This document shows, piece by piece, positions 33,953 through 57,351 of a stretch of DNA of 59,270 nt. The position numbers and the translations under genes are program-made. Position 1 is the first letter of the stretch; each line of letters starts with the position of its first letter. Under the pieces are notes generated by a model. It ran no database searches. It saw nothing but the letters and a program-made list of their open reading frames with translations, and had not been told where the DNA came from. Source of the stretch: a virus (taxonomy: Duplodnaviria; Caudoviricetes); IMG/VR virus record IMGVR_UViG_3300005096_000097, positions 1 through 59,270 of that record; one strand, written 5' to 3'.

Positions 33953-35798
33953 ATGGATGCTGAACCCACACACACGATCACAGTTCACGAAGATGGTCTG
34001 AAGTATGGTCAAATTGATGGTCACTACTTCAGCCCACAGCGGGACGCCAAATTCACTGTCAAGGATTTACAGAACATCATCCGGTTGATGGAAAACCATC
34101 AGACCTCAGACACCCCTGTATGGGAGTATGTCTCCATCCAGAAACAGAAGGACGACTTTGGCCGCCTGATATTAGTGGTCCATCCTGGTGTGTATACCAC
34201 CCGTCCCGATATTGGGTCTGCCATTACTGTGGATGGGAACCCGTACACCTTGGATGCCATCTGCAAGGGTGTTCGAGGGAGTGATAACCTCCATTTTGCT
34301 GTCACACCCGTTGTTGAGAATCTGGAAGAAGCATTTAAGAGATTTGGACCAATGGGACAAGTGCCGTCTAGTCTCAACCAGGTCGTCCAGATGGAATCTC
34401 GGCAGGAGCGAATCCCATCGACGCAACACTTCACGAGTGTGTGCAACACAAAACATGGCGATGGCTGGACTCATGTGGTCCAGTTCCCTCTTGGGAGCGA
34501 GCGTCCATCAGCCGGTAAACATGTCCTCATTGATGGGGGTGCCTACAAGGTGCTCGACGTTAAGGATGCAATGCAACCTGCTCGCCTGGCTCTGACGGTC
34601 ATCCCAGTACTCGTACCTCAGAGGTCAGAGAAACAGTATGTGTGACGCAGAAGCTCAGAGGCTCAAAGAAATCCATGCGAGGATGCACGCCGTCATGGCC
34701 GGGGGAGCCCTGGCGAGGGCTCAGAGGCACCTCAATAAGTCGGATTCGTTACCACCTCCTGAGACAACCATCACTATACCCCGCGATGACTATAACGCCC
34801 TGGTGTCCGCCAAGACTCCCACCATTACTACACCCCTTGACGGTAGAGACACCCCACCCTCGATGGTTCCTCGAAGAAATGCAATGCCAGTCATGGCATT
34901 ACGCTTAGAATCCACGGTGGAACACTACAGTCCTGATGATACCAAGCGGGGGCTTCGCAGATTCGACGTTGTCCCTCGCCCGGATTACACCCCAGAGTTA
35001 GGCGGCATCGTTTATATTGATGGGGAGGAGTTCTGTGTCCAGGGTTACTATATCTATGATGGTGATGTGGGATGGGAAATGCTAGTCTCCGAGGTCATTA
35101 AAACCCCATCAGAAATACCCTGCCACGAAATGATTGCGGGGTCCTTCAAATCCCTCGCTCAGACCTCCGTCGGGTTTACTGAGAAGGAAGGGGCCTCAAC
35201 CTTCATTCTGAGTACTGCGTCCCATGACCGACCCATGCCTAAGAAAGGCTCCGCCATTCTCATTGATGGTTCCCCATACCAAGTGTGGCACTGGGGACCT
35301 GGGAAAGACAAGGTGCTTGTCCAGGGTACAGCTCAGACAGCTCGGGTTGTTGAAAGGTCTATGACTATTGACCCTGCGAGTGAAGTGGAAGGTCAGGAAG
35401 ACCTGGTTATTGTTGGGCGGTTCACTGCGGAGATGTACGGCCACGATGGGCATGGGGGCTTTATGGCCCTCATTAAGATACCAGTGTTCTACACCTATGA
35501 TCTGAAGCCCGAGGACACAATAACACTCGATGGGCTCCTATTTGAGGTGGAGGGTGTGGAGGGTGTGCCTGATGAGAACCTGTACTGGTGGATCTCATGC
35601 AAACCGGTCTTTCTGCCGCCAACACTAACCCCCTGCCCGGGTGTCAGACGGTCTGCCCAGGTGGACATACAAATCCGACCTCGGGAGTGGCCCGATGGTA
35701 TGCACACCTACCTAACTGGTAGTCAAGACACCCAATGGCAGCCGACTTCGCCCCAGGGCTCAGACAGGTCTAACCGCTTATTCGGACTAGGATCATAA
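33953..35798 (+). CDS. two multidomain members of the 'G..V.IDG..Y.V' beta-domain family (33953-34645, 34638-35798)
   Basis: 2 and 3 copies of the motif respectively. Confidence 0.7.
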
Positions 35799-35801
35799 TC
35801 C

Positions 35802-36367
35802 ATGAGTAACCCAATTCTAAACCTTGTGTGGTGCATCCTAACCTTCTCGTTCTGTGTCGGGGGTATTGTGGGTATGGTGCTGCTAACTGTGCCCACGCGG
35901 TACCCCAACCATGAACCAGGCGAGCCTGACACAACCCACTGTTACAAGTATGCAATGTGGACCTTGACATTCTCAGGGGTATTGGCCTGTGGGGCTATTT
36001 TCCTTGATCCTATTGCCCTAATTGAGGTTGTGGCACTAACCGGGTTTGGTATTGTAACACTTTGTACCTCAAAATGGCGAAACCGGGAGACTCCCACATG
36101 ATATTCTTCCTTTGCTTCCTGATTGCGTCCTTTATGGTCTGTGGTTTGTGTGGGCTATGCCAGTTGTACTCAGCCGCCCGTACATTTCCTGGTAAACGGC
36201 AGCGAGAATACCAAGGGTCAGGCTTGACAATGTTTGGCGTTGGACTTACACTTGCAGTATTGTCAGTAGCAATTCACTGGTCCGCCCTGATCCCCCTCGG
36301 CGTGATGCTGGGATTGATATTCAACCAACTTATACTCCGCCGACCAAATCCCGAGGACTTCAGATGA
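35802..36367 (+). CDS. two small 3-TM membrane proteins (35802-36101, 36098-36367)
   Basis: Hydrophobic helices; overlapping start/stop. Confidence 0.65.
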
Positions 36368-39300
36368 TAGACCCAACTGTCAATTACAATTTCAATGGCG
36401 ACCAAATACTAAGCCAGAACCCAAGTGGGCAGGGTACTGAGTTCTTCGTACTTGGGGATATGCAGTTCCAGCCTCAGTGGGGTGAGACTGCCTTTATTGA
36501 CGGTGTGTATTACACAGTCCTGGAGTCCCATGAAGTACATAATGCGGTTTCATTGACTTGTGAGAAGAGATCTGACCAGACCCCCCTACGTGCTCGGAAC
36601 CTGGATCACCTACCCTGGCGACTTACTCTGGAAAAGGAGGGGTTTCTGACTTATGTCTTCAATGAGGAAGACCGGGTGACCTTGGAAATGGGGATCTACG
36701 TGGTTATTGGGGGTTCTATTCACTACCTTAAGGGGCAATGGGTTCAGGATGAGGAATGGTACCTTAGGACTTTGCCAACTCCTGACGTGCTGCCAGGACC
36801 CTGGGACCCCGCCTACAGTTTCAGATCTGCCAACGAATATGCCCTCAACTCCGACAAGACTGGGTTCAACATTTGGGTACCCAAGTGCCCTGACTTTGTA
36901 CATCCAAAACCAGGAGACCTGGTTCAGATTGATCACGCCTATTACCTAGTGGAGCACTATGACCCTCTACAGCAGGGTATGGGTATGTCAAAACTTACTG
37001 GATGCCGGTGGCGGTTACCCCTACCAACTGATCACCCAGCACACGACACAACCATTTATGGACTTGACGTACTACGAATCATGGATAAGGACCCCGTGTC
37101 CTTTGGTGAGACAGTCTTTACGCTGCATGCAGATGGTCCATCACTGGGTACCTTTAACAAACTACGCCACAATGGCGACGTCTACCAAATCCTAGGACAG
37201 TCTGGTACTAAAGACTGGTTAAGGGTCTGGTGCCGGCTTATAGAAGAACCAGATATCATTCCAGGGGACCCTCAGGTCTCCGTAGGCGTCCAACACATGG
37301 TCTCATAGAGCCCAGAGGGGTTTGTTGGCGTTCCGAGGCACATATTTACGACCAGGGCTCTGAAAGCCCCTTGTTGGAGCTAAGAATTGATATGACTGAC
37401 CCATTATTCGTAGTCAGACTGGTTAAAGGGGGTTCCGAACGTGAAGTCCACTACAATGGGGTTTACGTGGGACGTATTCATGGTGGGGACTTTAGGTCCT
37501 GTGGGACTCGTTGGTACACACCCAAATTGCTGGCTCTCATCCTGGAATACATTGCCGAGCACCCAGCCGGGAGCATCCCGGAGCAATGGAGCTTCGAGTC
37601 CATTGATGATGTGATACACATTCACGATGGGGAATTTATGGCTATCTTTGAATTCCCGGAGGAGGCGTCCCAGCGACCTTGGCGGGACTGCATAGTGTTG
37701 ATGGATGGTACACCAACAAAACTCGCCCACATCCTGGAACTAAAAGATGACACCCGGGTAGTTGCCCGTTGTAAATACGTGGAGATGACCAATGACTAAT
37801 ACTGTAACGTTTGCGCAGACGAACAATGGCTATCGGACTGCAACATGGGTTGGCTGTACTCTGGGCACTCTCGTTGGGCAGGATTTCCACCCAAATGAGG
37901 GTGTATGTGTCCCAAAGGACCAATTAGCGGAGATTATCCGGGAATTGAACCGCGACCCACAGGAAACAGTGCCCGAACGATGGAGGTTCAAGTCCGAGGG
38001 TTTGAGTCTCGACAGCCCAAGAGGGTGTCAGGTTATTGCCAGAATAGATCTTGCTGGGTCCTATGTGCAGGGACTTGTTCCAAATACTGGGTCCTACATT
38101 ATAGTTGATGACATTGTGTTGGAAGTCACTCGAATGTACCGATTACATGACACCCACTTCTACATTGTGGTGGGAAATCGGATTCCGGCACCTCGTGGGA
38201 CACATATGCACTTCAAAGACACCCCCTCTAGGTAGGACCTAAGATGTACTGGGTCAATAGTTATGGACACTGAGTATGATGAAGTACGTGGCTTTGAAGC
38301 CCGAGGTTATGGGCCACGGATAGTTGATGGTCAGGTAACATATGACCTAATCGAAGTCCACATGTGTTGGGATGCGATCCGCGAACTGGAGCCAGGGGAT
38401 ATTGTCCGGGTGGAATATATTGATTACACCCTCTATGACTTTTCGTATGGGAGTGCTGGACCAACATATTACTTACGGGTGCTGCCCGTTGATGATGCAG
38501 ACGACATAGAGACTTAATAATGACAACTGATACACCCGGATTTGAAAATACACACAAGCGCCCTGGGATTCTTGAGAAGAGCCTCCTCCATGACGGGTCG
38601 GGGTTGAGGCTGAATATCCCCCAACCATACATGAACAATGCGACCATTGGTCAGTTCGTGCAACTGGGGTCCAGCACCTACCAACTCACCTGGGTAGAAA
38701 GGTTGGAGAATTGCAGTCACTTCAAATGTACATGGGATCCCAAATATGGGGGTATTGGGATCGACGCGATACCCTCGCTGGACATCCGTCGTTGCCGCCC
38801 CGTCACGGATTGTCAATGTGATGACTATGCGGTGAAATGTGACTCCTTTGAGGGGTTTCCCACCCCAGATAGTCTAATTTGGACACCAAATGGGGTGGAT
38901 ATCCTTCGACAGGTACTGATTCGCAACCGTGAGTACTTCCATGTGAGTCTCCAACCCCTAGCAGCAGCCTATGCGAGCAACTACGGGGGGTACGTCCATC
39001 GTTTTGATGTTCCAGACGCCGAAGATTATGAACGAATGTGGTCCATGGAGGGTGAAACACTCCTCCGCATCCCGGCTGTGGGCCCTGCAAGCGTACCCAC
39101 TCCTGGAGAGTTGTTGAATTGGTTTGGCACCATATACGTGGTTTTGAAGAGTCGATATGTCCCGGAACGTCCAAGTAAGGATGCAGGGTGGGATTTACAT
39201 TGTTTACGAATTGAACGGAACACCGATGGTTGAACACCCAATTACAATACATGCTGACCCGAGATACATCTGGGCGCCCGAGGGACTTGCTGGGTACACT

Positions 39301-42300
39301 CTGGAAGCGACAGCGGACGAGCTACTAACCCTAACCCCCACCACGTCAGTCCTGATTAACGGGGAGACTCTGGCAACGTGTGTTGCATGCGAGCGACTGG
39401 ATGATGGGCAGTACCGCCTGTGGGTGCGTCAGGATGTCCATCCTAATCACTTGATATCTTTCAGCGAGATGACCTGTGCGAAGTTACCCCAGGTCAACAT
39501 CTGGTTAGTTGTGGTACCCCTCCGGAAAGCGAACCTGATTCGGAGGTGCAAGCCCGGGGATGTGGTGATGGTCAATGACTTCAAGGTTGAGATACTGGTA
39601 ATTGACGCTATTGACGCCAAAGATACCCTGGATCGTGTCCCAAAGTTCATTATGTCAGTTAAGAGTGAGGACACTCTTGATCCAACCGGTATCGGACACG
39701 ATAATTTGGGCTTCGACGAGGATGATTATGACCCTGGGAACGATCCCCGGAGTATTTTGGATTAACCAAGCTGGGAGAAACACATGACTGCAATACCAAC
39801 CGTAATGTACCGGAACACCGTGAACTTGTACGGACATAATTACTTCGTCTACAAAGTGACGGGGGACCCTAAAGTTGATTGGCTCGGGGAGTTCCTGGAG
39901 GGGCAAGCGATTGATTTGGACGGGGAGACGTTCCGCTACTGTACTCACAACCATGTTGGTTACGATGGTGAAGTGAATGAGTACGAAGTGTTCGTCGATC
40001 ATATTGGCGACCCAGTCCCCACTCAGGATGAGGTTCCAGAATTTGAGGGTCAGTTCCAGCACCGGATAGAACTGCAAGGTGTTATGTATAGGGTGTACAA
40101 CCTTCTTGGTACTGAGGCTGGGGGTCCCCTACCTGGGACCTACATTAACGCCATGGTGTGCATACTTGGGGAGAACCAGATACTGGCAGACATAGTGTAT
40201 ACCCACATGGAGTCTGGAGCCCGCCAGCTTGTTGCTTACTGTACCAACGTTCCGAGGGCAAGATGAAAGAATGTGATGGTGAACAAGTCGATGATATTTG
40301 GCTGGAAGATATTCGATCCCAGGTGTACAAGGTTATCCTTCCATGTTTGAGGGCGTAATCATGTAAATCGTGGCGACACTATCTGCATAAATGGTTAAAC
40401 AACTGCCTACCACGCCCAGATTCCAATAGATGTTGTCGATGGGGACGGAGGGTCTATTTCCTTGTTAATTCATAAAGGTAACACAAGATGTACAAGCTAA
40501 TTGGTGAACAAACGAGGGACATTCATCTGGGGGTCCATGACTACCAGGTGTTTACCGTAGATTGTCAGGACATGGACGGGGGCGACCTCGACTCTATGCT
40601 CCACCCGGATGGTCTACTTCACACCTCTATGAATGGACTACCTTTCGATTTGCTGGACCTACGTCCCAAGGAAGGTAACCGCTATACCGCAACTGGGTTG
40701 GTTCGGAAAGAGGCCGTCATTCGACCAATGCCCACGTTTGAAGCTGACGAGCGTGAGCAAATAGACCTCCATGGGCACATGTACCAAACGTTCCATGTGT
40801 ACATTGACCCGTCGGACTATGGGACCTCGGACTTCACACCGGGGAAGGTAATTGGCGTGAACAACCAGTTTTATGTTCTGCACGCGAAATTGCGAATACC
40901 TTATCGGAATTCACCAAAGGCAAATATGCACATACTCATTATGGAGGGACCATGTTAAGATTCATTGGTACTCAGTGCCCAGCCATTCGGCTAAAGAACA
41001 AATGCTACCCCGTGTTCTGGGTGGACGTGAAAAACAACACGAAGCCTATTGAACAGAACACAGTGGTTCAGATCAACGGTCGTAAATACACCTACCTGGA
41101 CTGTGTCGTGGATAAAGGTCCAAACTCTTACTACTTTTTCATTGTGGAGGAGTTATGCTCAGAATAGAATTAGATGGATTGCCCGACTTTGTGCTGGACG
41201 GTAGGGCGTACCCTACATTCAAGATTTTCACGGAGGGTGAGAGGGCCAGGGATGCAGACCCGAACTCTGAAGCTGTTGAGGCACTCAGTGGTGGCCAGAC
41301 AATCCAAATCAATGGAGGGCTCTACGAGTTCCTGTTGTACGAACACTGGATAACAACCATCAGTCCTTATGAGCGATGGTACCGTGTGTTTACGCGGAGA
41401 CTAAATGTCAATTCTGGTGAACTCCCTGCGTTCGTTGGCGACTCCACGGTTGGGATACGCATCCAAGAGGTGAACTACCCCGTGTTCAAGATCCGTCCGA
41501 ACTCAATTAGTGATGAACCCCTGGCACCTGGGTCGCTGATTAAAATCAATGGCGTTCCCTATGTTTACGTGGATTGCATTGTTCCGGATCAGGAACTGGA
41601 TCGGTACCAATTCATCGTGGAGGAACTATGATCAGGATCCAAGCGTACCCAAGGGCTCCCCTGATATTAGCGGGTCAAACCTACCACGTCTTTGATTACA
41701 AACACTCGGGGATAGCACCCTACTCAGGTGTTGTATTCCCGGAAGTCCTTATAAACGGGGATCCCTATCGGATCCTCGACCAGCGTCACAAGGAAACACT
41801 GGCTGGGACACCCAAAGTTCGCGCGGAAAAGGGGTTGCAGTGGGTCCATACCTTGATTACAATACCCATAGACAGAGAGATTGTACCTGCCCACTCATTT
41901 GAGGCAGAACTCTACGATGAGGTTACCCTGAATGGTCTGGAGTACCAGGTATTTGAGGTAATGACAGACGATGATACCCTCGATGACATTGGTCGTCGGG
42001 ACCTAGTTCGGTTCCCCGGCTGGGGAGATTACTACCTCCACTTGTACTTACCCGTAGGAACATTTGATGGGGGGCACGAACACCCGTCTCTATTACTTGT
42101 TTGTAGCAGACCAGTCAGCAGGAAGTTAGACACCATGAAAGAATTCAACGGACACTATAGTCAGCGTGTGGACATCACGGACTCCGTGCATATCGTCGGA
42201 CTTTTGGTGACAGCCACACTAGAGGAACTCGGCAGTGTTGAGACCGGTGACCAGATTAAGTTTGCTGACAAGTATTGGATTTACCTGGACCAACTCCCCG

Positions 42301-42380
42301 TGGACTTTGGTCCCGGACAGGCACTAGTGGTCTATTTCATTGTGCAACCTGCTCCGGAGACACAAACTAATGGGTATTGA
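36364..42380 (+). CDS. array of about 11 genes of the beta-domain paralogue family (36364-37308, 37392-37799, 37792-38235, 38263-38517, 38520-39233, 39226-39765, 39784-40266, 40488-40958, 40952-41167, 41155-41631, 41628-42380)
   Basis: Tightly coupled ORFs carrying 1-4 copies of 'PG..(V/I).I(N/D)G..Y'. Confidence 0.7.
40263..40475 (+). pseudogene. frameshifted/stop-interrupted member of the beta-domain family
   Basis: One frame reads MKECDGEQVDDIWLEDIRSQVYKVI...stop; another frame continues RGDTICING*; 'RRVYFLV' at the end. Confidence 0.55.
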
Positions 42381-42613
42381 AGACATGTGGACCGTCCTGA
42401 GTCCACTCATCCTGCTTGCGTGTTTCATTACACTGTTCAAGATTATCGACAAGATTGACGATTGGTAAAGACTCATGGAATTACATATTACGCCAGCCCT
42501 TGGGCTGATGTTCGGCATGGCCTTATTGTGCTGTATCCTCATAGGAATTCGCCTCTTGGATTGGTACTTTGGAGACCACCGGTGAGTAACTCAAACCTTT
42601 GGAAGGGATTGTG

Positions 42614-43673
42614 ATGGCAAACTTCAATAGCCGAGGGGGCGGTATGCAGGTTGGCAATAACCGCGTGTTCCATATCCCTATTAAGTATGTGGAACACAAC
42701 CTCTTGAGGCTAGAGGCAGGGGATGATGTTACGGTAGACTTCGCGGCCTACCAGGTTATGCACCCCCTCCCCAGAGCAAGAGTCTCAGGTCGTGGGTTGA
42801 GCACTATTGTCTGTCAGGGTATGGACCCACCCCCGGCACACGCAGAAGTTATATGTGTGATGCTGGGCTTTGGGTTAGTATGGGCGCTCTATCTCAGTAA
42901 CGTCCTACCGGTGTATGCCCTTGGGGTTGCTGGTGTGGTGGTTGCCAGATGGTGTGTGTGGTACCTAACTCGCCATAGCATTATAGATCAATTACCAATG
43001 GACGCAGATTTCCTTTATTTGAGTGTGAGGCCGCATAATGCCACTTGACCCGAACCATGAACACATCGACCTAATCATGGGGCTCGTCACCGATGATTAT
43101 GATGACGCCAGGGCTCGTGGTGATATGCTCCGTGCGCACTACCTCATGGAGAATGCCCGACGTGATGGCTTCCTAATTGACTATGTCCCTGGTGGAAAGA
43201 CGACTTGGTCCCACACAAGCGGGAAGACAGCCGGTGACCCCCATGACTGGGATTCAAATTTCCAGGGTGATGAGGAGTTTGTAACGAAGCAGTTCCGTAT
43301 CTTCCGTGTGAAGACCCATCGGAAAATGAAACGCATTATGGACCTAAAGGAAGGTTCCCGTGTACGGGTTAACTTTGAGCAAGTGAAGGTAGGTAATCCC
43401 CTCCCCTCTATGTTGCTGAGTAACGAGGACGTGCGATGGTATGCCCAAGCCGTTCAGGACCGAACAAACATAATCCTCCGTGTGTACATCCCTACGTTCA
43501 CGATAGCTCTAGTTTGGTGGTTAGCGTTTGGCAGTTGGTTCACCTACGTTGTAATGGGTACAAGTGCCTTGTGGATATTTATGACCACCAAAGGCTGGGG
43601 GATGAGTAAGCCTCCAAACGTTAGGCTACCTGGTGATACTGAGTACGTTTACTTTGTAACGGAGAATGACTGA
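42614..43673 (+). CDS. two paralogous beta-domain proteins with an inserted TM hairpin (42614-43048, 43038-43673)
   Basis: Shared 'NF.......F.I.......L..G..V.V.F....V..PLP', two TMs, then 'D..(F/Y).Y'. Confidence 0.65.
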
Positions 43674-43725
43674 TGGATGGACATTATCCTGTCCGAACTG
43701 AAGTCTACCACACCCATACCAACCA

Positions 43726-44079
43726 ATGTGGCGAAGAATGAACATTGAATTACGGACTATCCAGCTACGCCTCACAATCCAGAACCAATTGGATAAGAGG
43801 GAGGTGGCAAAAGCTGACAAGGACTTTGAAACAGCGGACGCCATCCGCGAGACACTTGTGAGTCAGGGGGTTACAATCAACGACACACCCTATGGTCCGA
43901 CGTGGACCTATGGGCGAGTGACCTATGGATCCATCAACTGCTTAGAGGACCTGAAGGTGGTCACTGAGAATGAGATTAAGCTTCGAGTCTTCCGGGACGA
44001 GATTGCAGTGGACCGGGCAGCGTTCGTCAAGAAACATGATCGCCCGTCCACCCCTCCGGATTACGAGGGAGGCAAATGA
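43726..44079 (+). CDS. protein with stand-alone CysRS C-terminal (anticodon-binding)-like domain
   Basis: 'LDKREVAKADKDFETADAIRETLVSQGVTINDTPYGPTW' matches the CysS C-terminal consensus R..A+..KDF..AD.IR..L...G+.+.D...GT.W. Confidence 0.75.
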   Translation: MWRRMNIELRTIQLRLTIQNQLDKREVAKADKDFETADAIRETLVSQGVTINDTPYGPTWTYGRVTYGSINCLEDLKVVTENEIKLRVFRDEIAVDRAAFVKKHDRPSTPPDYEGGK

Positions 44080-44111
44080 TGGTAGGGACGGATACAATTT
44101 AGTCACTTGGT

Positions 44112-47085
44112 TTGGGAGTTAACGAAATGATGCTTATGTTGAATGTGGCGAGTGCCTTGGCAGTACTGTCAATCCTCGGGAGCCTACTTTACCGTTTCAC
44201 CCGTGAGTGCTTTGAGGTTGATGAACTCCAATTCCTTGGACCCGTCGCGATTATCCTCTGGCTACTGGGAGGCTTCCTCCTAGGTGTCCTGATGACACAG
44301 CATGGGGCATTCGGATCCATTTTCGCCTGGGTGGGTTTCGTCCCGTGGTTGGGGTGCCCCATTTACCTGATTACCAAAACTAGGGAGACCCCTAATGTCT
44401 AGTATGATACCTGCCCTCACGGTTCTGCTCATCTTTAGCTTCTGGCGGAACATTGTCTGGGAGATTCGGGCGGGTCGTGATGACCCTACTCTCTGTGGCG
44501 CCTCAGCTTCTGATAAGCATGCTTATGCGTGGCAGAAGGTAGCATTTATTGGCTTTTACATTACTACATTCATCTGTTTCTTAGAGGCATGGAAATGATT
44601 TGGTTCTTCGCGACACTCCTCAGTCTGCTGATGGTGCCTTTTATTGTGGGTGCTGGCTGGTTTGCTTACCAAGCCCTGGACTGCGAACGCTGGAAAGACG
44701 CAAGACTTCACGTTGGGGGTGTCGGCATTTGCGCAAGTGGCGTCTTCTTCTTCAGTGTCATGCTCTTACTTATAGGATACCTCCAATGTTAACTCCATGT
44801 CTTTGGGTGTGGTTCTCCGCAAGCATCCTCATTTGGGCAGGTTGTATGTACCGCTGGCGATGCCTGAACGACTCTAGTGACTTCAATGTGCTCATGCCGG
44901 TATTGGGCTGCATTTCCTCCTTAGTTTGCTTATCCACCATGGTGTACCATGTAGACAGCATGGCAACTGGGGTGATTGGCTTTGTAGCGACTATAGCATG
45001 GCTTGCTTGTGCCGGTACCTTATTCCTAGGAGACCCCGAATGATTGCTTGTACAATTCTGTGGTTCTTAACTTCCGTACTCGTCTGTGTCTGCCTGGATA
45101 AGAAGATGAGAGCACTACAGCACCCCCTGCGAGACGATTATGTGTGCTACCGGGCACTAACCTGGGTGACGTCCCTGGTCGCCCTATCACTGCTCTTCGT
45201 ACAAACCGAAGGGACTTACTTCACGGGGGTTGTCTCAGCCACGGCTGGGTTGTGGGTTGCCGGCTCAGTGTGGATCTTTTACTTTAATCAAGAGGTGGAG
45301 TGATGATTGCTTGTTTGGTTTTCGGCTATGTAGTTAGTCTGGTTATTTGTGCCCTAGCACATCAGAAGCTTAAGCAGATTCAAGGCCAACGTGGACATAT
45401 GGATCACCGCGAGCGGGAGATAGCTGAGTACATGCAAGGTTGGCGTGCCTTTGGATGGGTTTCCTCCATTGCACTAACCTTCCTTGGTCTAGCCCTCGCA
45501 AGTGGGTGGGGTTTCCTGCTTATGGCCCCTGTCGCCGGTATCTGGATTGCTGCCACAGTGTGGATGTTCTTCATTGACACAGTGGAGAACAATCGATGAT
45601 AGGCTGCCTGGTTTTCGGATTTATTGTCTGTGTGGTTCTGTGTGGTTGCTGCCACCAAAAGTTGCTCCACTTAAAAACACTACCCGCCCCACTAAACGAG
45701 ATATACAACCCTGCGTGTTACCCAACCCCTGACCCAAACCAATACCGGGACAGTGCGATTATGTGCATGGAGATATTTCGAGGGGTAACTTGGGGCCTCA
45801 CGGTTGCTCTATTCCTTATCGCTTTTACCCATGCCAACACCTGGCAGACTATAGTTTTGGCTCCGGTCATGGCGGTCTGGTTGGCAGGGACAGTTTGGAT
45901 GTTCTTTATCAATGGGAGTTCGACGTAATGCTTGTACTGTTTCTGTGGTTGACAACCACCTTCATGTTGTGTACCGGTTTCCATTTCAGAGCGGGTAGCC
46001 ATGAGAACAAAGATGTGGCGGAGGGGTTCATGATTGCACGTGGGGCGGCTTGGGTGGCAACACTTGGGTTGGTTTCATTTATGTGTGCAGTTAAACCAGA
46101 GACCAATGTATCCGTAGTACCCGTATTGGTGGCATTACCCATCGCGATGTTGTGGTTCGGGTGGTCAGTGTGGATGTTTTTCCTTGACAAGAGGGTGCAG
46201 AGATGGGATACTTGATAGTGTTGCTGTTTTTGGCAATGTGTGGGACACTAGCGGCGATCATTGTGATCGTTATATCTGAGTACCAGTCCCGCCGGGGTTA
46301 CCTCTCTGAGTGGGCGGTAGCCCTAATCGTAGCACTGACAGTTGTGTCCCTATTACTAGCTGGGCAGATAGGCGTCCTGAGTGCAACAACTGCGACTGTG
46401 CGTGGGATGTTGCAACCAGGTGTTGAGTTTTATGAGGGTGGTAACCCTCTTGAAGAAACACAGATTACTGGAGTTAAACAATGATTTATGAGCTAATGAT
46501 GTTGCTGGCGTTTCTGACTGGTTGTTTCTGCCTGTACAAGTTTACCAGGTGGACTGACGCCTGGGTTATCTGGTTGGTAGCAGCGGGAGTTTCATGGGGT
46601 GTTGGATTGACGACCTTTGCTTTCTGGATGCTTGAGGGTATCAATGCGTTGATTTAATGAATGTGTTACTGTTCTGGGCGTTTGTGATGTGCTTCGTGAC
46701 AAGCTTGGCTTTGGATTTCTATGGTCTCCGCTGCCATTTTGGCACCGAGACAGGGCGTCGACTTGACAAAGTGTCAGCAACGCTAAAACTAGTCGGTCTT
46801 GCCTGTATCATCGCAAAATTTATCACCACATAGGGGGTATCGATGAATCTTCTGATTGGAATTTGCCTGATGTTCTGGTGTATCCTAAACGTGTATGGCG
46901 TGAAGATGGTCGTGTATGAGTTCACGGACATCCTGTCTGACAGAGCGGGTAGTTACCTCACCACACGTATTCGGGTTTTAGGCGTCATTTTCGGATCATT
47001 CACTTTAGCGATTTCAGTTGCCGTCTTTGGATTTTCTATTGCAGCTTTCCGCGATGGGGTCTGCCCTATGGAGTACCTGAGATGA
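44112..47085 (+). CDS. array of small membrane proteins (44112-44402, 44395-44598, 44595-44792, 44786-45043, 45040-45303, 45300-45599, 45596-45928, 45928-46215, 46203-46484, 46843-47085)
   Basis: All 65-110 aa with 2-3 TM helices and coupled starts/stops; the five central genes share 'M..(C/L)......C.....R...W.......W...(T/S)VW.FF'. Confidence 0.7.
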
Positions 47086-47603
47086 AATTCCACACAATTG
47101 TTACTGTGACGCCCAAGTCAGACAAAACCGCGAACCCATTTGGGGACGACGCAACTGTTTATCAGTTTGTGACGGACGACCCACTCACCCTGGAGCTGGC
47201 AACACACTTTCTGAGGGCTAAGGGGGCGCCACTGCGAAACCGGACTGTAACTGTCAACGGGGTCCCGCCTCCCCAGGAGGTAGCCGTACATGCTCAATCT
47301 GCGGTCTTATGCAACCGTGACACTGGGACGCTGTACCTTGCCCGGTACGTGAATGGTGTGGTTGATTTCGTCACCCCAGTCGACTGGGTGTGGGCAGGGA
47401 GTACACCTCTCAGGGATATTCTGAAACAAATCCTGGCTGACTACGAAGGTGGCGTTGCAAACCAGATGTACTCGGACCTCGACCCTGATGTCCTGGAAAC
47501 TGTTGCCCTCTATGACGAGGACCAGGGTCTCCGGGACATGCGGCGGAACACAGGGGTCCAAGAAATGTGGTCGATGGAATCCCGAAGGTCAGCACCATGT
47601 TGA
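47082..47603 (+). CDS. hypothetical soluble protein
   Basis: 173 aa; GGAG RBS; ATGA overlap. Confidence 0.65.
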   Translation: MKFHTIVTVTPKSDKTANPFGDDATVYQFVTDDPLTLELATHFLRAKGAPLRNRTVTVNGVPPPQEVAVHAQSAVLCNRDTGTLYLARYVNGVVDFVTPVDWVWAGSTPLRDILKQILADYEGGVANQMYSDLDPDVLETVALYDEDQGLRDMRRNTGVQEMWSMESRRSAPC

Positions 47604-48169
47604 TATTTATATTCATCCTTTGCATTGCATCAATACTGTGCTTACTTGCACCCCTGTGGGCTTGGTTATTCAGTCGAGCGGAATCATGGACACAGGATGC
47701 TGAGAATGTGAAAAGTAATGTCATTATGTCTCAGATGGCAGGTAGTCTTTTGCTTATTTTCATATTTCTATTCGTTGGGATGTGGCTTCAATGACCCTCG
47801 TACATTTACTCGCTGTGGCAGCATTCATTATCGCGGGCTGCATTACGTCAGCTCGATTGGATTGGACGCCCTACCACACTAAGATGGCGGACCAGGGGAA
47901 ATGCTGGATTGTTGGCCTCACAGCTTACTTGACCATTCTCGCTTTAGGATCCCTCTACCATGCCCTCTGATGTACATGTTGTGTTTCAGGTCATTTACCT
48001 GATTGCCGGGATGATTGCCCTACATGCTGGGGCTGTGGCATTAGTGTGCAAGGTATTTGAGCCACGCTGGTTCATGGGCTGTGCAAGGGTGTGCATAGCT
48101 GCTGTGGCAGTGATGGCTTTGAACGGGCTGGTCGCTGGCGTGTCTACACTGGTGAGGTACGGGTTATGA
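47597..48169 (+). CDS. three small 2-TM proteins (47597-47794, 47791-47970, 47960-48169)
   Basis: Hydrophobic helix pairs; coupled. Confidence 0.6.
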
Positions 48170-48411
48170 GTAAAGACGAATTCACTGGCTTGGTCCATCT
48201 GAAGAACATGCGTGACATTGGCAAGTTCGCGGATACTCAGTGGCAGGTGTTTCGAGGATTGATTGCTGCCCATGACTGGGTGGACATCGAGCTACGGCGT
48301 AACATCCAAATTAACAAACATGTGTACAATGTGAAAGATATTCTGACGACCCCCTTCACATTGGGTAAAGCGGCCATGGGATTTGTGATAGTTGGGGATC
48401 CGGTCTACTAA
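48166..48411 (+). CDS. beta-domain family member ('L.NM.DIGKFADT...FRG' subfamily)
   Basis: Paralogous to 49774-50435. Confidence 0.65.
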   Translation: MSKDEFTGLVHLKNMRDIGKFADTQWQVFRGLIAAHDWVDIELRRNIQINKHVYNVKDILTTPFTLGKAAMGFVIVGDPVY

Positions 48412-48595
48412 TTTCAGTTCAGCGGATGGCTAAACGTGGGTATCAAAGAAGTGGTAAACAGGTCTTGAGAACCTGTTACAGACTTGCTTAGGACAAGAGA
48501 TATTATTGGTATTCGTGCTTAAATGGGGCGTTTTATGCTCGGAATAATCTTTGGCTTACTGTTATTCTTCCTTTTACTGATGACGGGACCCTATC

Positions 48596-49652
48596 GTGAT
48601 TGAACTAACGGGCGTAACCATCACTGGCTACACACTCGCAATGTCCTGCACGTTGCTGATGACTATTGGTTGTTTGGCTGCTGGGTTCTGGGTGTATAAC
48701 GTGGCAGTGATACTCAGTGGCTATGACGCGGATGCCTACGCAAAATACTGGAGCCACGCCGTGGTTCTGTTCCAATCGGCAGGTATCTGGGGTGGGTGTG
48801 CCCTGACAATTTGGGTACTGTCCTGGTTTACTGGCAGTCACTGAACGTCACAAATAGGCCACCCACCACTTAATGTGGAAAACCAGAGGCGAAATAGCAA
48901 AGATGTATGGACGTCTCGGCAAGCCATATTAGGATGGATACATGATGAACACTTTATTACAAGACAAACCCGTGGCGTTTTGTGTTGTTAAGTGGGTGTG
49001 ACAATGTCACGGGACTCTTTAAGTTGGCGGTGTCGCTGATTATTCCGGTGGTTTTTGCAGTAAGGTGTGTATATGGACTCAGCACTCGTAGTAATGAATC
49101 TGTTATTTGGTGGGGCCTTAGCTGCCCTGACCATTGGCTGGGTTTGGCTGATAGTCGCGTATTTTCGTGACGCTGAAACAGAAGCAGACCTCATCATCGA
49201 ATGGAAGAAGGATGCCTCACATATGTTTACGCTGGCAATGGTCCTTCTGCTCGGATCTTTGATAGCGAGGTGTTTATCATGACTTTATTACTCGTATGGT
49301 CAGCCCCCTCAGTGGGTTGTTATTTGGTGGGGTGGTGTTACTTCATAGCAGCCCTGCGTGACCCTTGCCAGAGTGACCAACTCTGTGGGACTGCCCTGAA
49401 GTGGTTTGTGGCCACTTGGATACTGCTCATACCCAGATGGTTAGGGTGGATTGCATGATAATGAATCTATTACTGATGTTCCTCCCGGTCTTTGGTTGCG
49501 TCATTGCCGGGTGGGTGTGGCTCATTGCAGCAATACTTCGTAGGCATATCCCAGAACTCCGCGAGGAGTATTGCGACAACGCTGGGAATCTGTTCAAGTT
49601 GGCATTTGTGTTGAATGTCTCAGTATGGTTGGTGCAATTACTATATTGGTAG
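48596..49652 (+). CDS. four small 2-TM paralogues (48596-48844, 49067-49282, 49279-49458, 49455-49652)
   Basis: Shared 'GC...GW.W.I.A..R.........A...F..A' pattern. Confidence 0.6.
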
Positions 49653-49773
49653 TTTGCTTAGGGGGCCAGATCCACTGGTCTCTGAGTATCCTGACCTCAG
49701 GTCATGCAGGAGTCAGGAGCTGATGACTCACCGGTTTAACATTTCTCAGTTTCTTTGTAGTGGAGTACAGGGT

Positions 49774-50435
49774 ATGATTGATTTGGGAGATATGGAAGAC
49801 CTTGGCAAATTCGCCGACACAGACTTGGACATGTACCGTGGTGTCCTGTCCCAGACTGAAATGCGCAACTTGATACCCGGTAACACACTTGTCACAGTCA
49901 ATGGGAAACGAGGTGTGCTTGTCGAACTGATTCCCTTGGAACAAAGTGGTTTGTATGACGGAATTGTGTTCGTCAAATCTCGGGAGGTGATCGATGGTTG
50001 AACTCGAAAGTATGGAGTTGGTTCAGACGTTTCGGAATCAAACGGGATGTGCAGTGTTCCGGGGCATGGTACCACAAGGAGCTGTACTGGGTCTGTCACA
50101 TGACGTGATCTGTAAAATAAACGGCGTGAAATGGACTCTCGTCGAGGTCATACCCCTGGCTCACGAGGACACCTTTGAATCGCTTGTAATTGTCAAACCC
50201 CGGGAGGTGATCGATGGTTGATCTTGCTGAGTTGGATTACATTGGTGACTTCGGAAACTACGAGGGGTGGTCCACGTTTCGAGGACAGATCTGGCAGGCG
50301 GACGCGAAGGATTTGAAACCGAGCTGCCTTGTTAAAATCAATGGGAAGGAACAAGTCCTTGTCGCGTTGATTCCCCTGGGTGGTGGTCCGGTGTTTGAGG
50401 CAATTGTGGTGACCCGATTCGGGTGGTGTTACTAG
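49774..50435 (+). CDS. three tandem paralogues (49774-50001, 49994-50221, 50214-50435)
   Basis: 'M..L..M.....F......FRG......L.....KINGK...LV..IPL'; duplicated junction CGGGAGGTGATCGATGGTTGA. Confidence 0.75.
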
Positions 50436-50517
50436 AAAAAGGACAAAAGATTATGATGTGTACGCTACTGGTTGCTATGGAAGTCATTTACAATCCGATT
50501 GGGGTAAAGTCTGACTG

Positions 50518-52014
50518 ATGACATTTCTACTAAACATGCAGAGCCCACTTCATAACGAGCAGGTTACAATTGGGACGTACGCATATGCACTCATGTGGTT
50601 TACGTTCGGACCCGAGGAACGCCCAGGGGCTCTAACCTCACTGGGAGTCCATAAAAAGGTATGGGAGGTCCTCCACATGGACCCACTCCCACAGGGCACC
50701 CAGCCTGGTCAGAGATACACCTTGAGTTGTGTACTCCGCCGCCCCCTGGATATTGAGTACCCGAACCTAACGGCAACTGTCCTCTGGAGAGAGGGTCGGG
50801 TTGTGTCACTTCAGGTTAACGTCTTGAGGGGGCAGGAGACCGCTTTGTTTTATGCGGGAGATAAATTCCGTATCAACGACGAGCCAACGATTTACCATAT
50901 CAAGGTTGCGGGTGATAGTAGGCAGGGTGGTTGGCTTATTATGGCTGAGGAAATTGCCGGCTGAGATGTGGTGTAACAAACATGCAAAAATAGAAAGATT
51001 GAAACGATGACAATTCTTTATAACGTTCAAGCAAGCTCCCTGAGATTAGCATCCATCGGAACATACACGTACGGAATGTACGAGGTCAAGCTCCGGCCCG
51101 AAGAAGTTCCCGACGATTTGCAGTATATCATCATCGACGGAGGTCATATGTCCGTCTGTTACCTGGAGCCATTCCCAGAGGATGCCGTCCCCGGGCAAGT
51201 GTACAAATTGCTCGCCACTCTAAGGTGCAAGGCATCCTCGTATCCTGAAATAGAGGCCGAGCAACTCTGGAAGGATGGAAGCACTGTTGCTTTGGCAGCA
51301 GACCTACTTGATGATGATATTTATGGTATCTATAACGCAGGGTATCGATTCCTGCTTAAAGGTAGCCCACAAATCTACCGGTTACAGAATGGTGACGCAT
51401 TGGACAAGTTCCAGACTATGCTCCGGGACGGTCGAAAATACTTCTTAGCGGTTGAGATTTCCAGTAGCTGAGATTTGATCCTGATTTGGTGTGGTATTCT
51501 TCGGGGTACCATCTGTTCAACGATGATTTAACGTGAGGACAACTTGATGGAATTCAAGAGTAAATTGATGTGTGGGCCAACGGTAATTGGACGGTGGAAG
51601 TACGAGACCCATGAACTTGAGGGCCCGAGCAACCACCTATATGCAAGTACCCACGTAATCACCCTGAATGGGGTGGATGTGGAGGTGGTGGCCTGGCCCC
51701 ACGACCAATCCTCCAGTGACCCACCCAGACGTGCATACGTCACGGTAAAAACACCCATCCAATTATTCCCGGTACTTATTACCGAGGACTTCCCGTCTCA
51801 CCACACGGGGGCTGATGGTACGGCCGTGGTTGTCATTGAGGCTCGGACAACGTACGGGGGCATCAAGGGGATTATAGAAGCCACTGATAAAGGTCTGGTC
51901 TGCGTAAATGATTCGCCGAAGACATTCCGAATACACACATGGACGCAGGTTGGTCCCCCAACTGAGGAACATGAGCTGCCACTGTATAGTCTACTCCTGG
52001 AGGAAGTGAAGTGA
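50518..52014 (+). CDS. three two-domain paralogues (50518-50964, 51007-51471, 51544-52014)
   Basis: Shared 'IG.(Y/W).Y', 'V....P.P', 'AG..F.(I/L)...P.IY'; also related to 54270-54707. Confidence 0.7.
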
Positions 52015-52149
52015 GGGCTGAGGAGATCGGCTGAGATTTGATAATGGTTGAGATTTGGAAGGTGGTTCCTTATGAATACTGATGATTTGGTATTATGGCT
52101 GCTGGTGTTGTGCCTCTGGTGGCTACTAATTTGATTGAAAGGTTTTGAG

Positions 52150-52611
52150 ATGCTTGAGACTAAAGGTTCAGTGAACATCACGACGGAATTCGTTAGCGAC
52201 GGGTACCGCTATTTTGTGGGTACAATCACGCAGTGTTTGGGGTGTCTGGATGTGCCAAAATACATCTCGGTTGAGAAACAGATAGGGTCCCGGGGTGCCA
52301 GTGCCGAAATCATATTTGTGGACGAATGCCCTAATGACACACCCTCGGACAAGTTGGTCGAACTCCAGATAGTGGCGAAGCGCCTTGATTACCCGTCACC
52401 TGTGTTGCCAATCGACGGTCGGTTCTTCGGGGATGGTGATATCCTACTTGTTGAGGCTCTGGAGACCGTTGCGCCAGGGATGAAATTCTGCCTGGAGGGT
52501 AAAAGTGGTGAGTATGTGTGCCAGAGCTGTACTCGGAGAACCATACATGGTGGTGACCCGGATGATGAGCTAGTGTTCCTGGTGGTTGCCACTGAGGTGG
52601 GGACAGCCTAG
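52150..52611 (+). CDS. two-domain hypothetical protein (paralogue of 53737-54204)
   Basis: 'ETK.SVNIT.EFV.DG.RYFVGTIT...GMKFCLEGK' shared. Confidence 0.75.
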   Translation: MLETKGSVNITTEFVSDGYRYFVGTITQCLGCLDVPKYISVEKQIGSRGASAEIIFVDECPNDTPSDKLVELQIVAKRLDYPSPVLPIDGRFFGDGDILLVEALETVAPGMKFCLEGKSGEYVCQSCTRRTIHGGDPDDELVFLVVATEVGTA

Positions 52612-52615
52612 TGAC

Positions 52616-52644
52616 TTGACTTCCTCGATTTGGTGTGGTACACT
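52616..52644 (+). promoter_or_regulatory. sigma70-like promoter
   Basis: TTGACT-N17-TACACT with extended -10 TG; similar sequences at about 51476 and 54209. Confidence 0.6.
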
Positions 52645-52689
52645 TCAGGTGTACAATTTATTCTGGAGACACACTGGGGGACTGGTCTG

Positions 52690-53700
52690 ATGGTGGAAGA
52701 AGAATCTTGGAGAGATGTGGTTGGGTTTGAGAAACTGTACCATGTCTCAGACTGGGGACGGGTAAGGTCACCCGATCGTCAGATTCGGGCGACGTGTGGT
52801 AGCCAACGATTTTGTGCTGGTCGGATACTTACCCCTCACAGGACGGGCAAGTCCCGGATAAATGTGGTCCGCCTGTCTCGGGAGGGGAAGCTGTACATCC
52901 TCGACACCGAGGACCTGGTGCTGGAAGCTTTCGTAGGGCCTCGCCCGCCGGCTTGTATTGCTCACCACATCTCGGACGACCCGTATGATGTGCGGTTTGC
53001 CAACCTCGAATGGATGGTTGACCCCAACTATGCAGCGATACGATTGGCTCAGTTAGAGAAGGAGAGCCGGAAAGCCAAACGTGAGGCAACCCGACGTGAA
53101 GCAGCCCAACGGGACGCTGTCCGACTATCCGCAGCCCGACAAATTGCAACACTGCTTGGAGCCACTTCGTTCTCTGAGTCTAGATACCGGGAAGCCTGGG
53201 GTTGGGGAGCCTGTCAGGTTTTTAATTGGGGTACCCTACTTGCTGAATTGGAATATGGGGAGGTCCGGGAGCCCAAGAAGGATGCAGCCACGAAGTTGGT
53301 GAAGCCCAAGAAGCCCATAGCCACAAAGTTGGTGAAACCCAAGCAGGTCAAGCAGGTCAAGCAGGTCAAGCAGGTCAAGCAGGTCAAGCAGGTCAAGCAG
53401 GTCAAGCAGGTCAAGCAGGTCGCGCCGACCCCAGAACTGATAGCCAAACGGAAACGAATGGCTGTTGAGTACACACGGGAGTGGCGTGCCAACAAGAAGA
53501 AGGCAGCCGAACTACTCGCATCCGAACACTGGAGTGCTAAACTGGACGCAAAGTACACAGTGATGCGGGATGACGGGATCGAGTTTGATAATTACGCGGA
53601 GGCTGGTCGGGTTGCAGGCGCGACGCCGGCGGAGATCAGTGATGCGTGTGAAACTGGAGAGCTTCTTCTAGGGCACCAGTGGGCTCAGATAAGTGTGTAG
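52690..53700 (+). CDS. NUMOD4-HNH endonuclease-like protein, degenerate, with (KQV)9 repeat
   Basis: 'WRDVVGFEKLYHVSDWGRVRS' NUMOD4; 'LVLEAFVGPRP...HH..D.....FANLEW'. Confidence 0.75.
   Translation: MVEEESWRDVVGFEKLYHVSDWGRVRSPDRQIRATCGSQRFCAGRILTPHRTGKSRINVVRLSREGKLYILDTEDLVLEAFVGPRPPACIAHHISDDPYDVRFANLEWMVDPNYAAIRLAQLEKESRKAKREATRREAAQRDAVRLSAARQIATLLGATSFSESRYREAWGWGACQVFNWGTLLAELEYGEVREPKKDAATKLVKPKKPIATKLVKPKQVKQVKQVKQVKQVKQVKQVKQVKQVAPTPELIAKRKRMAVEYTREWRANKKKAAELLASEHWSAKLDAKYTVMRDDGIEFDNYAEAGRVAGATPAEISDACETGELLLGHQWAQISV
53341..53421 (+). repeat. 9-bp tandem repeat (AAGCAGGTC)x9, in-frame
   Basis: Perfect copies read directly. Confidence 0.95.
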
Positions 53701-53736
53701 ATACAGGAAATCGAAGATAATTGTGGAGGATGCCTG

Positions 53737-54204
53737 ATGAGTGAGACTAAAGCTTCAGTGAACATCACGTCGGAGTTCGTCATCGACGGGTTTCGATATT
53801 TCGTAGGTACAATCACGCACTGCCGGCGGTGGTGTACTGGGGGTCCCAAATACATCCAGTTGAGCCCTCAGGAGGATCGTGCCCAAGTTCAGTTTATGGA
53901 AGACTTCCCTAAGGATGTGACCCTGGACCAGTTAGTCGAACTCCAGATAGTTGCGAGGACATTTGATTACCCGAACCCTGTGGTGGCGACCTACGACGAA
54001 TTGCTTGTTGACGACCACATATTGGTTATTGAGACCCTGGAGGGCATCACGATAGGGATGAAGTTCTGCCTGGAGGGTAAAATTGACGTGTACCTGTGTG
54101 AGAGCTGCCGGCGGATCACCAAACATGATGATCCTGCTAACAACAAGGACCAGAAAGAAGTGTACCTGGTGGTTGCCACCCGCGTACCGTTTGGGACAAG
54201 CTGA
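53737..54204 (+). CDS. two-domain hypothetical protein (paralogue of 52150-52611)
   Basis: GGAGG RBS; high similarity to 52150-52611. Confidence 0.75.
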   Translation: MSETKASVNITSEFVIDGFRYFVGTITHCRRWCTGGPKYIQLSPQEDRAQVQFMEDFPKDVTLDQLVELQIVARTFDYPNPVVATYDELLVDDHILVIETLEGITIGMKFCLEGKIDVYLCESCRRITKHDDPANNKDQKEVYLVVATRVPFGTS

Positions 54205-54269
54205 GATTTTGACTTCCCTGATTCGGTGGGGTACCACTGAGGGCTGTAAATTCGACGAAAGGTAGACGT

Positions 54270-54707
54270 ATGTCAACTGAAATCCTGAAGAATCCACTCT
54301 GTTCCAAATTGACTTCTGAGATAATTGGGAACTACAAATACATCACGGCCATATTTGAAATGGATCCAGCGAGATACCCGGAGGGTGTCGAGTGGATGGA
54401 AGTCAGCGGGTACACATTTGAGGTACTGCATCTTGACCCGTACCCCCAGGGTGCCACACGGAGCCCGACAGTTCCCATCCATGGAGTGGTTCGGCGATTC
54501 CTGAATGGTATCATTCCGACTATTTCGGGAACAATCCTCTGGGTTGAAGGTGAAATGGTGGTACTCAAGGTATCGTTGGCACCTGATGATATCCAACGCA
54601 TTAACGAGGCGGGTGGGTACCTTGAGGTTGAGAGTTCAACCTACCGGCTGCGCACCAAGACACGGACGGACACTGGATACATTATTGTTGCGACGGAGGA
54701 ACACTGA
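54270..54707 (+). CDS. paralogue of the 50518-52014 family
   Basis: 'IGNYKY...FEVLHLDPYPQG...LW.EG..V.L.V'. Confidence 0.7.
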   Translation: MSTEILKNPLCSKLTSEIIGNYKYITAIFEMDPARYPEGVEWMEVSGYTFEVLHLDPYPQGATRSPTVPIHGVVRRFLNGIIPTISGTILWVEGEMVVLKVSLAPDDIQRINEAGGYLEVESSTYRLRTKTRTDTGYIIVATEEH

Positions 54708-57345: not shown

Positions 57346-57351
57346 TACGTT

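Follow-up and report, generated by a model that had tools for sequence, protein, structure and literature searches.

Blocks of small lineage-specific open reading frames (ORFs) are known from T4-type hyperplastic regions, from polymorphic internal-protein loci and from the host-takeover module of SPO1. The stoppers of phage necks, in turn, are described in the R4C paper (PMC10276861) as having in common a barrel of anti-parallel β-strands, to which an N-terminal extension may be added. Here we analyse a gene array that invites comparison with both. It occupies positions 33,953 to 54,707 of a 59,270-nucleotide (nt) stretch of DNA, the whole of IMG/VR record IMGVR_UViG_3300005096_000097 and hereafter referred to as the window, which comes from an uncultured tailed phage, is linear and has a completeness of ~56% by CheckV.

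The array is one co-directional gene train on the + strand in which 27 soluble ORFs were called, all of them ORFans. Its genes abut or overlap one another and are interleaved with small membrane ORFs and one homing endonuclease gene. We conclude that the block is a lineage-specific accessory region of a phage without a close cultured relative. Comparison of the sequences indicates that its ORFan families arose in place by old tandem duplication and carry no conserved catalytic-type residues. The units of two of the families, E and F, are predicted to be β-barrels of ~75–85 amino acids (aa) with six to seven strands in the same order and a D/N-G hairpin in the same place, and the nearest known folds to the models are the barrels of phage necks (stopper, gpFII, gp16) and tail hubs. 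Our preferred interpretation, to which we give about an even chance, is that the array is a hyperplastic accessory region in which tandem expansion has produced binding modules that are non-enzymatic and specific to the lineage; the doubt concerns mostly their function and not their anatomy.

A hairpin motif is concentrated in the array

The units were searched with a loose form of the hairpin motif, [VILFMA]x[VILFM][DN][GHNDKA]xx[YFW]x[VILFYTM]. The three + frames of the window contain 17 matches, every one of which lies within 33,953–54,707, in a coding frame; together they fall in 10 of the 27 proteins. The three − frames of the window contain three matches. When a leading G was added to the motif, all ten + strand matches were in the region and no − strand match was left. 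As a background, five matches were found in six frames of G001, a 104-kb genome that is the closest complete uncultured relative (TerL 77% identical), and 15 in 399 kb of related-phage loci, one of which (L004) lies inside G001, some DNA being counted twice. The motif is thus ~20 times denser here than in the related phages, and this enrichment over a low background argues that it is real and not due to chance.

A hidden Markov model (HMM) of the hairpin core was seeded with the 17 sites and applied with a cut-off equal to the score reached by about one decoy per proteome-equivalent. It found 27 sites above the cut-off, the 17 seeds and 10 new ones, in 17 of the 27 proteins.

Sequence families and their expansion

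All-against-all BLASTP sorted the proteins into groups A, B, C, E and F and two further pairs, and these groups were then extended by decoy-controlled HMM iteration. All genes of the array are on the + strand. BLASTP group F consists of three neighbouring genes whose units were delimited by F HMM iteration and a six-frame profile. Gene g33953 (33953..34645, 230 aa; no Pfam or PHROG family) codes for an N-terminal domain in common with g37392 (BLAST E 0.002), followed by two F units (34103–34321 and 34403–34630). In g34638 (34638..35798, 386 aa) an ~85-aa N-terminal tail precedes three F units (34896–35132, 35130–35387 and 35394–35645) and a C-terminal tail, and g36364 (36364..37308, 314 aa) has three F units (36364–36597, 36799–37050 and 37039–37275) and a segment, aa 79–145, outside any family. 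With HMM iteration F grew to 10 units in five genes, as the C-terminal part of g37392 and the N-terminal part of g42614 joined it. The former (37392..37799, 135 aa) has the N-terminal domain and one F unit (37569–37796), which joined in iteration 2; its partner in a BLASTP pair, g37792 (37792..38235, 147 aa; no Pfam or PHROG family), is a paralog of that N-terminal domain (E 0.002), with a C-terminal part outside the families. The latter (42614..43048, 144 aa) has an F-type barrel (42620–42847) fused to a C-terminal hydrophobic hairpin, as indicated by the F HMM and hydropathy, and is paired with g43038 (43038..43673, 211 aa; BLAST E 6e-4), in which a beta-rich part is followed by C-terminal membrane segments.

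Group E comprises five consecutive genes. Two E units each were found in g39784 (39784..40266, 160 aa) and g40488 (40488..40958, 156 aa), both by alignment and HMM, and in g41155 (41155..41631, 158 aa), by BLAST to g40952 (E 6e-12) and HMM. Gene g40952 itself (40952..41167, 71 aa) is a single E unit, and g41628 (41628..42380, 250 aa) has one full unit, one partial unit (aa 89–129) and a C-terminal part outside the families, by HMM. Group C consists of three tandem genes of ~73–93 aa (49723–50001, 49994–50221 and 50214–50435; BLAST E 1e-10 to 8e-12) together with g48166 (48166..48411, 81 aa), a C-like single unit recognised by BLAST to g49720 (E 9e-7) and by a motif match. HMM iteration merged C with E, giving 12 units in eight genes, with best decoys at E 0.35–0.89. 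The units supported by HMMs are ~70–85 aa long and occur one to three per gene.

Group B contains g50518 (148 aa), g51007 (154 aa) and the more distant g51547 (155 aa), which together span 50518..52014 (BLAST E 3e-18), and g54270 (54270..54707, 145 aa; BLAST to g50518 E 2e-15). Group A has two copies, of 153 aa (52150..52611) and 155 aa (53737..54204; BLAST, alignment and DNA repeat scan), which are 50% identical (E 3e-46). The four conserved Cys of the A family are arranged as two CxxC-like pairs, a possible zinc site. Alignments were made for E (A1, eight paralog rows), F (A2, ten rows) and B (A3).

Five of the 27 genes fit no family. Three of them, g38263 (84 aa), g38520 (237 aa) and g39226 (179 aa), follow one another at 38263..39765, match no Pfam or PHROG family and include a hairpin-core match above threshold in g39226 only; the others start at 43726 and 47082. 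The 117-aa protein at 43726–44079, which is unrelated to the barrel families, resembles the CysS_C anticodon-binding domain below threshold (E 7e-4, 20.1 bits; cut-off 23) and matches two PHROGs without known function.

Thus, at least four families (F, E+C, B and A) can be distinguished by sequence. When the family HMMs were run over the window in six frames, every match fell in the region, in a + coding frame. Of five paralog pairs, four have reached saturation at synonymous sites; in the A pair synonymous divergence (dS) is 0.71, nonsynonymous divergence (dN) 0.33 and dN/dS ~0.46. These values indicate old duplications under constraint. The A pair is the youngest duplication and the only paralog gene pair picked up by a DNA repeat scan. 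Hypervariation of recent origin, or of the kind made by diversity-generating retroelements, was ruled out by the saturated synonymous sites in four of the five pairs and by the repeat scan that showed the A pair only. The conserved columns are fold determinants only, that is, alternating hydrophobics, the D/N-G turn and a P/G ahead of the hairpin; a single column is invariant in A1, and two are nearly so in A2. Such a pattern in the alignments fits a scaffold with varied surfaces.

The original prediction, made by a model from the sequence of the window, had described over 20 genes built from one to four copies of a single ~70–80-aa unit. The motif array at its core is real, as the matches above demonstrate, and the eight example peptides that it quoted are all present. 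Construction from such units is shown for fourteen genes (13 by HMM and g48166 by BLAST) and is plausible for eight others (B, A, g37792 and g43038), while five fit none. Small repeated units were also borne out, at ~70–85 aa and one to three copies, but by sequence they belong to several families and not to one. An all-against-all hhalign comparison, proposed there as a check, did not join them in one superfamily: it gave 51% for E–C, 22–25% for E–F over 18 columns (the hairpin only) and 16% or less for pairs with B, A, H or G (BN–F 16%, the rest 10% or less).

Predicted fold of the units

The E and F models were built from non-overlapping alignments. With A1, AlphaFold2 predicted the 71-aa E protein g40952 as a six-stranded all-beta structure (strands 2–4, 6–14, 17–25, 38–41, 44–54 and 60–67) with a predicted local distance difference test score (pLDDT) of 88.7 and a predicted template modelling score (pTM) of 0.74. 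With A2, the F unit g36364 aa 146–229 was predicted, at moderate confidence, to be all-beta too (strands 6–8, 12–15, 23–28, 41–44, 47–50, 53–55 and 63–71; pLDDT 69.8, pTM 0.59). The two models have in common three N-terminal strands, a long loop ending in P-x-x-G, the D/N-G hairpin (~38–54 in E and 41–55 in F) and a last strand. By a hand count, 29 of the 50 entries in their VIA top-50 lists are common to both. For B, an ESM Atlas model of g50518 aa 54–148 (pLDDT 0.68) had PilZ (TM 0.69), Phage_attach (0.64) and Phage_HCP (0.61) as nearest clusters, at an overall TM of 0.58–0.69. From the models we take E and F to have one small barrel fold in common, of a type frequent in phage necks and tail hubs, and B probably has it as well.

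The first alternative to be weighed is that the array is a hyperplastic region of unrelated functions, filled with unrelated beta-rich ORFan families that share only a generic two-residue D/N-G hairpin. Neither HMM iteration nor hhalign joins F, E/C, B, A, H and G. The iteration never merges F with E/C, the cross matches being at E ~0.1 against decoys at 0.3–0.8. In addition, the matches of the E profile outside this phage are hairpin repeats, the motif itself occurs in only 10 of the 27 proteins, and five genes are familyless. However, the motif is far denser than in related phages and absent from the rest of this one, and whenever an HMM was searched across families, real sequences outranked the decoys. 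The E and F models agree in strand order, in hairpin position and in more than half of their best PDB matches, and the C-terminal part of B is, in the Atlas model, also a small barrel with the same neighbours. We regard the explanation by unrelated families as unlikely.

Likeness to phage neck and tail barrels

A Foldseek search of the PDB gave no match at E ≤0.001 for either the E or the F model (E at least 0.06 throughout). The top entries for E were the R4C stopper (E 0.062, TMq 0.51), the T1 stopper and a 114-residue lambda portal-vertex chain, and those for F the T1 stopper (E 0.21), T4 neck proteins and the FCWL1 head-to-tail interface, so that stoppers rank first or second for both models. 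The BFVD matches (E 0.03–0.2) include several head-tail adaptor or joining proteins amid many unnamed small phage proteins. Judged by title and counted by hand, phage or phage-tail-like virion parts make up 25 of 50 entries in the VIA list for E and 32 of 50 for F. The top VIA hit of both models, with Z of 6.4 and 6.6, is the same stretch (~240–395) of a JBD30 baseplate chain; tail-hub barrels score at least as high as stoppers, and unrelated barrels come within 1–2 Z units. In the ESM Atlas the model of g36364 is poor (pLDDT 0.55), and its feature matches (0.79–0.82), which are at the level of leads only, include Phage_attach and Phage_HCP clusters. A sequence search of the PDB found no stopper with either alignment: A2 had no match and A1 six weak unrelated ones.

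At the level of sequence families, the best scores against PF05354 (gpFII / Phage_attach) were 16.7 bits for g34638 (E 0.012) and 16.1 bits for g36364, the cut-off of 26 not being reached, and the other 25 of the 27 proteins had no match at E ≤1. When the genome was scanned with this family, g36364 scored 15.2 bits (E 0.0014 per genome). PF05521 (Phage_HCP; SPP1 gp16 / HK97 gp10-type) gave no match at E ≤10, and none of the 27 proteins reached threshold with any other Pfam or PHROG family. The units may descend from gpFII. The likeness to gpFII and gp16 that had been proposed is thus weak and repeated at once: it recurs in two proteins below threshold, in the Foldseek stoppers and lambda neck chain and in the Atlas leads, yet nothing is significant, hubs score as well and PF05521 is silent. 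A likeness to the insertion domain of this phage's own capsid protein, also suggested, was not seen, as no family HMM matches the capsid gene or any other place in the window. What does stand is the existence of an expanded and strongly diverged set of small predicted β-barrels outside the morphogenesis module.

These data bear on the second alternative, which takes up the idea of the original prediction and according to which the units are true homologs of virion barrels, of the stopper (gpFII/gp16) or tail-tube-like type, that were exapted and diversified as decoys. Such decoys would titrate sensors by which defences recognise structural proteins, or would cap or jam heads and tails built by competing phages and by satellites. 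It gains from the sub-threshold PF05354 scores in two independent proteins and in the genome scan, from the stoppers and the lambda neck chain at the top of both Foldseek lists, from the head-tail adaptor and joining proteins in BFVD and the Phage_attach and Phage_HCP leads for F and B in the Atlas, and from virion-type entries filling at least half of the top-50 lists. Against this, nothing is significant: both PF05354 scores are ~10 bits under the cut-off, PF05521 is nil and A1 and A2 find no stopper in the PDB. Moreover, the family HMMs are blank on the morphogenesis genes of the relatives, hub-domain and cellular barrels score equally well, and the units, strung together or fused to membrane segments as they are, resemble no stopper in this respect. 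We consider this explanation quite unlikely. Its strictest form, in which a neck- or tail-type barrel was copied from the virion module to give ~25–30 free, tandem or membrane-anchored mimics serving as decoys for virion-fold immune sensors or as poisons of competitor head-tail joining, is in our view improbable. If true, such a library would mean counter-defence or inter-virus warfare by a diversified repertoire of structural mimics.

Membrane genes and gene order in the array

A hydropathy scan of 32–56 kb found 30 + strand ORFs with hydrophobic segments, some of them overlapping; three are the array genes g42614, g43038 and g50214. With the overlaps and these three removed, roughly 25 small membrane genes are left. 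They code for proteins of 58–150 aa, mostly with two hydrophobic segments, and form arrays at 35.8–36.4, 44.1–47.1, 47.6–48.2 and 48.6–49.7 kb, with a further stretch at 54707–54946. The first array consists of two ORFs of 99 and ~89–101 aa between barrel genes (35802..36367, Kyte-Doolittle scan), the second of ~11 ORFs of the above size and type (44112..47085; DNA repeat families D7 and D9), the third of three ORFs (47567..48169) and the fourth of ~five (48596..49652). Within the second, a paralog set at 44926–46215 ends in a conserved ..VWMFF and is visible as a DNA repeat. In g42614 and g43038 the predicted barrel is joined to a C-terminal hydrophobic hairpin. The barrel is probably cytoplasmic because there is no signal peptide and basic residues follow the second segment, and with this topology some barrels may do their work on the cytoplasmic side of the membrane.

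The gene between the A copies (52630..53700) scores 37.9 bits with NUMOD4 (E 2.2e-9), above the cut-off of 23.4, and 22 bits with HNH_3 (E 1.2e-4), just below that of 24.8, and was accordingly assigned to the HNH/NUMOD4 homing endonucleases. It contains a perfect 9-nt tandem repeat (53322–53439) that encodes (KQV)n. Two further genes of this type lie at 54918–55655, after the array, and at 58223–59137 on the − strand. Promoter-like and terminator-like sites showed no enrichment over shuffles and do not indicate transcription units. The region had been called early in the original prediction, a designation that derives from its position only.

A third alternative is that the proteins are virion-associated cargo or decoration, with a role during or following injection or on the outside of the particle; T4-type polymorphic internal proteins and Ig-like decoration strings offer the comparison. 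It would account for the beads-on-a-string arrangement of two to three barrels, for a fold class otherwise borne by virions and for the strong lineage specificity. The array is, however, on the opposite strand from the head genes, its first gene being ~21 kb from the nearest − strand morphogenesis-side gene (12142–12945) and ~31 kb from the capsid gene. It is interleaved with ~25–30 membrane ORFs, the alignments have no shared N-terminal targeting peptide and no signal peptides were noted. We regard this explanation as very unlikely. That the units are PilZ-like barrels serving as small-molecule sponges for cyclic-nucleotide immune signals is scarcely credible, as the succession of RxxxR and [DN]xSxxG, which we take to be the cyclic di-GMP (c-di-GMP)-binding motifs of PilZ, is found in 0 of the 27 proteins, PilZ (PF07238) has no Pfam match at E ≤1 and the units have no conserved polar pocket residues.

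Distribution among relatives and databases

No near-identical DNA was found in cultured phages by megablast, and TerL is at most 27% identical to that of any cultured phage. In a tblastn search with all window ORFs, G001 had homologs for most genes in the first 30.9 kb of the window and for none in the remainder, and it has no array comparable to the one described here. Family HMMs found nothing in the morphogenesis genes of the relatives. Profiles A1, A2 and A3 were absent from all five related records, two of them complete; in their own record A1 had 8 and A2 10 matches.

Searches of large databases gave a similar picture. Among 5.8 billion proteins g34638 found only itself. A1 had 11 matches among 1.84 billion representatives, five of them this phage's own proteins and six long or repetitive proteins; the latter are cell-wall-binding-like and other repeat proteins, and generic hairpin repeats account for the match in the two sequences read. 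In a large protein library A2 found only its own protein g37392, and A3 found two relatives of B, on contigs of 566 and 674 nt. IMG/VR had no match for g34638, g52150 or a 363-aa upstream gene, and JGI metagenome contigs had none for g50518. By sequence, then, the array families are essentially private to one phage lineage. No account of such an array was found in the literature. G001 has tandem paralog sets of its own on the − strand, at ~49.9–56.9 kb and 28.8–32.1 kb, each with 3–4 genes of ~300–380 aa, and tandem expansion may be a habit of this phage lineage.

Genomic setting

The head genes occupy 1–13 kb on the − strand and include those for the major capsid protein (1421–2830), the scaffold, the portal (4540–6408) and TerL (6422–8131). 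A single tRNA-Gln (anticodon TTG; 12966–13037, −) lies at the end of this structural block. From ~15 kb to 56 kb nearly all genes are on the + strand. The upstream part of this train codes for a lipase, a trypsin-like peptidase, an SPFH protein, a peptide deformylase and a 5′-nucleotidase. It also codes for a Prs-like phosphoribosyl-pyrophosphate synthetase (23553–24407, +), a protein with two T7 gp5.9-like RecBCD-inhibitor domains at aa 4–46 and 166–208 (24400–25041, +) and NAMPT (28091–29560, +). The closeness of the last three genes points to a possible NAD-salvage and counter-defence neighbourhood.

At 55800–57500, where the + and − gene blocks converge, there are dense tandem repeats with periods of 12, 18, 27/109, 29 and 9/45 nt, including a palindromic unit in ~11 copies; the stretch may be an origin, iteron or packaging region. 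No terminal repeat is present at the ends of the window, as the 304-aa ORFs at both ends are unrelated and no 40-mer is repeated.

Discussion

The interpretation that we prefer, diversified binding modules on a few expanded barrel scaffolds, implies the following course of events. The array proteins would be made from the long non-structural + strand gene train. The units would bind proteins of the host or of competing phages stoichiometrically, some of them at the inner face of the membrane, and each paralog would present a different surface on a common scaffold. Host takeover, counter-defence and superinfection exclusion are possible roles. We count in favour of this the gp5.9-like RecBCD inhibitor, NAMPT, the Prs-like gene and the homing endonucleases on the same strand as the array.

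Several points weigh against it. The whole case derives from one metagenomic contig, from sequence and models. By sequence the families cannot be joined past the 18-column hairpin, and outside this phage the E profile picks up generic hairpin repeats, which means that the motif by itself is not family-specific. Confidence in the F model is only moderate, and the predicted barrel of B comes from an ESM model of its C-terminal part. The basis for a common fold is confined to E, F and B, leaving outside it the A family, the N-terminal domain of g33953, g37392 and g37792, and five genes. The argument from the neighbourhood is weak, as the counter-defence-like genes are 4–10 kb upstream of the array. 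Finally, no host was indicated by the capsid protein, which has no match in GTDB contigs, or by TerL, with its identity of at most 27% to cultured phages.

It is chiefly in accessory regions that large phages harbour undescribed functions in host takeover and counter-defence, and these regions usually look like collections of unrelated ORFans. In the present phage about a third of the visible genome is filled by the expansion of a few predicted barrel scaffolds and of small membrane proteins. The array can be seen as a natural series of surface variants on a small, confidently foldable scaffold, which makes it tractable for finding out what ORFan arrays bind. Should the neck and tail barrels prove to be related to the units by descent, the array would exemplify the recruitment of virion folds to non-structural roles. 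On present evidence the array is a well-documented curiosity from a single metagenomic contig.

How the array compares with known systems can be stated for each of them. The PilZ domain resembles the units in being a six-stranded barrel of similar size and is the nearest Atlas cluster of the B C-terminal part; it differs in the c-di-GMP motif pair and Pfam match that the array lacks. Tail-hub or baseplate-hub barrels (JBD30, Chi, Sf11, the lambda gpJ region, Mu gp44, T4 gp27, pyocin and diffocin) account for many entries in both VIA lists, at a root-mean-square deviation of 4–6 Å and an identity of 6–14%. They are, however, domains of large trimeric tail proteins, whereas the array barrels are free-standing and small and are encoded in a non-structural block.

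With the stoppers (lambda gpFII, SPP1 gp16 and those of R4C, T1 and GTA) the units share a similar size and, as far as the models predict, a small antiparallel β-barrel, and presumably also the C-terminal G-x-x-h-x-h-(D/N)-G-x-x-aromatic-x-h hairpin with one last hydrophobic strand after it. Unlike stoppers, they score below significance or below the family cut-off and have no evident N-terminal extension for binding an adaptor. A stopper, which forms a hexameric ring beneath the adaptor of the virion, is encoded in the head-tail module in one copy per genome, while the array genes are on the + strand at 34–55 kb, outside that module, and hold dozens of units, strung two to three per protein or fused to membrane anchors. 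We did not file the units in the gpFII family because of the sub-cut-off PF05354 scores, the nil result with PF05521, the gene position and the multi-unit strings.

The likeness to accessory blocks of the T4 and SPO1 type extends to co-directional small lineage-specific ORFs, small membrane proteins, homing endonucleases and absence from close relatives. Long runs of small ORFs with homing endonucleases are already known. What is unusual here is the in situ expansion of a few predicted barrel scaffolds, most like virion parts, together with arrays of membrane proteins: where the known blocks consist of unrelated acquired ORFs, this one has been filled largely by the expansion in place of a few barrel-scaffold families.

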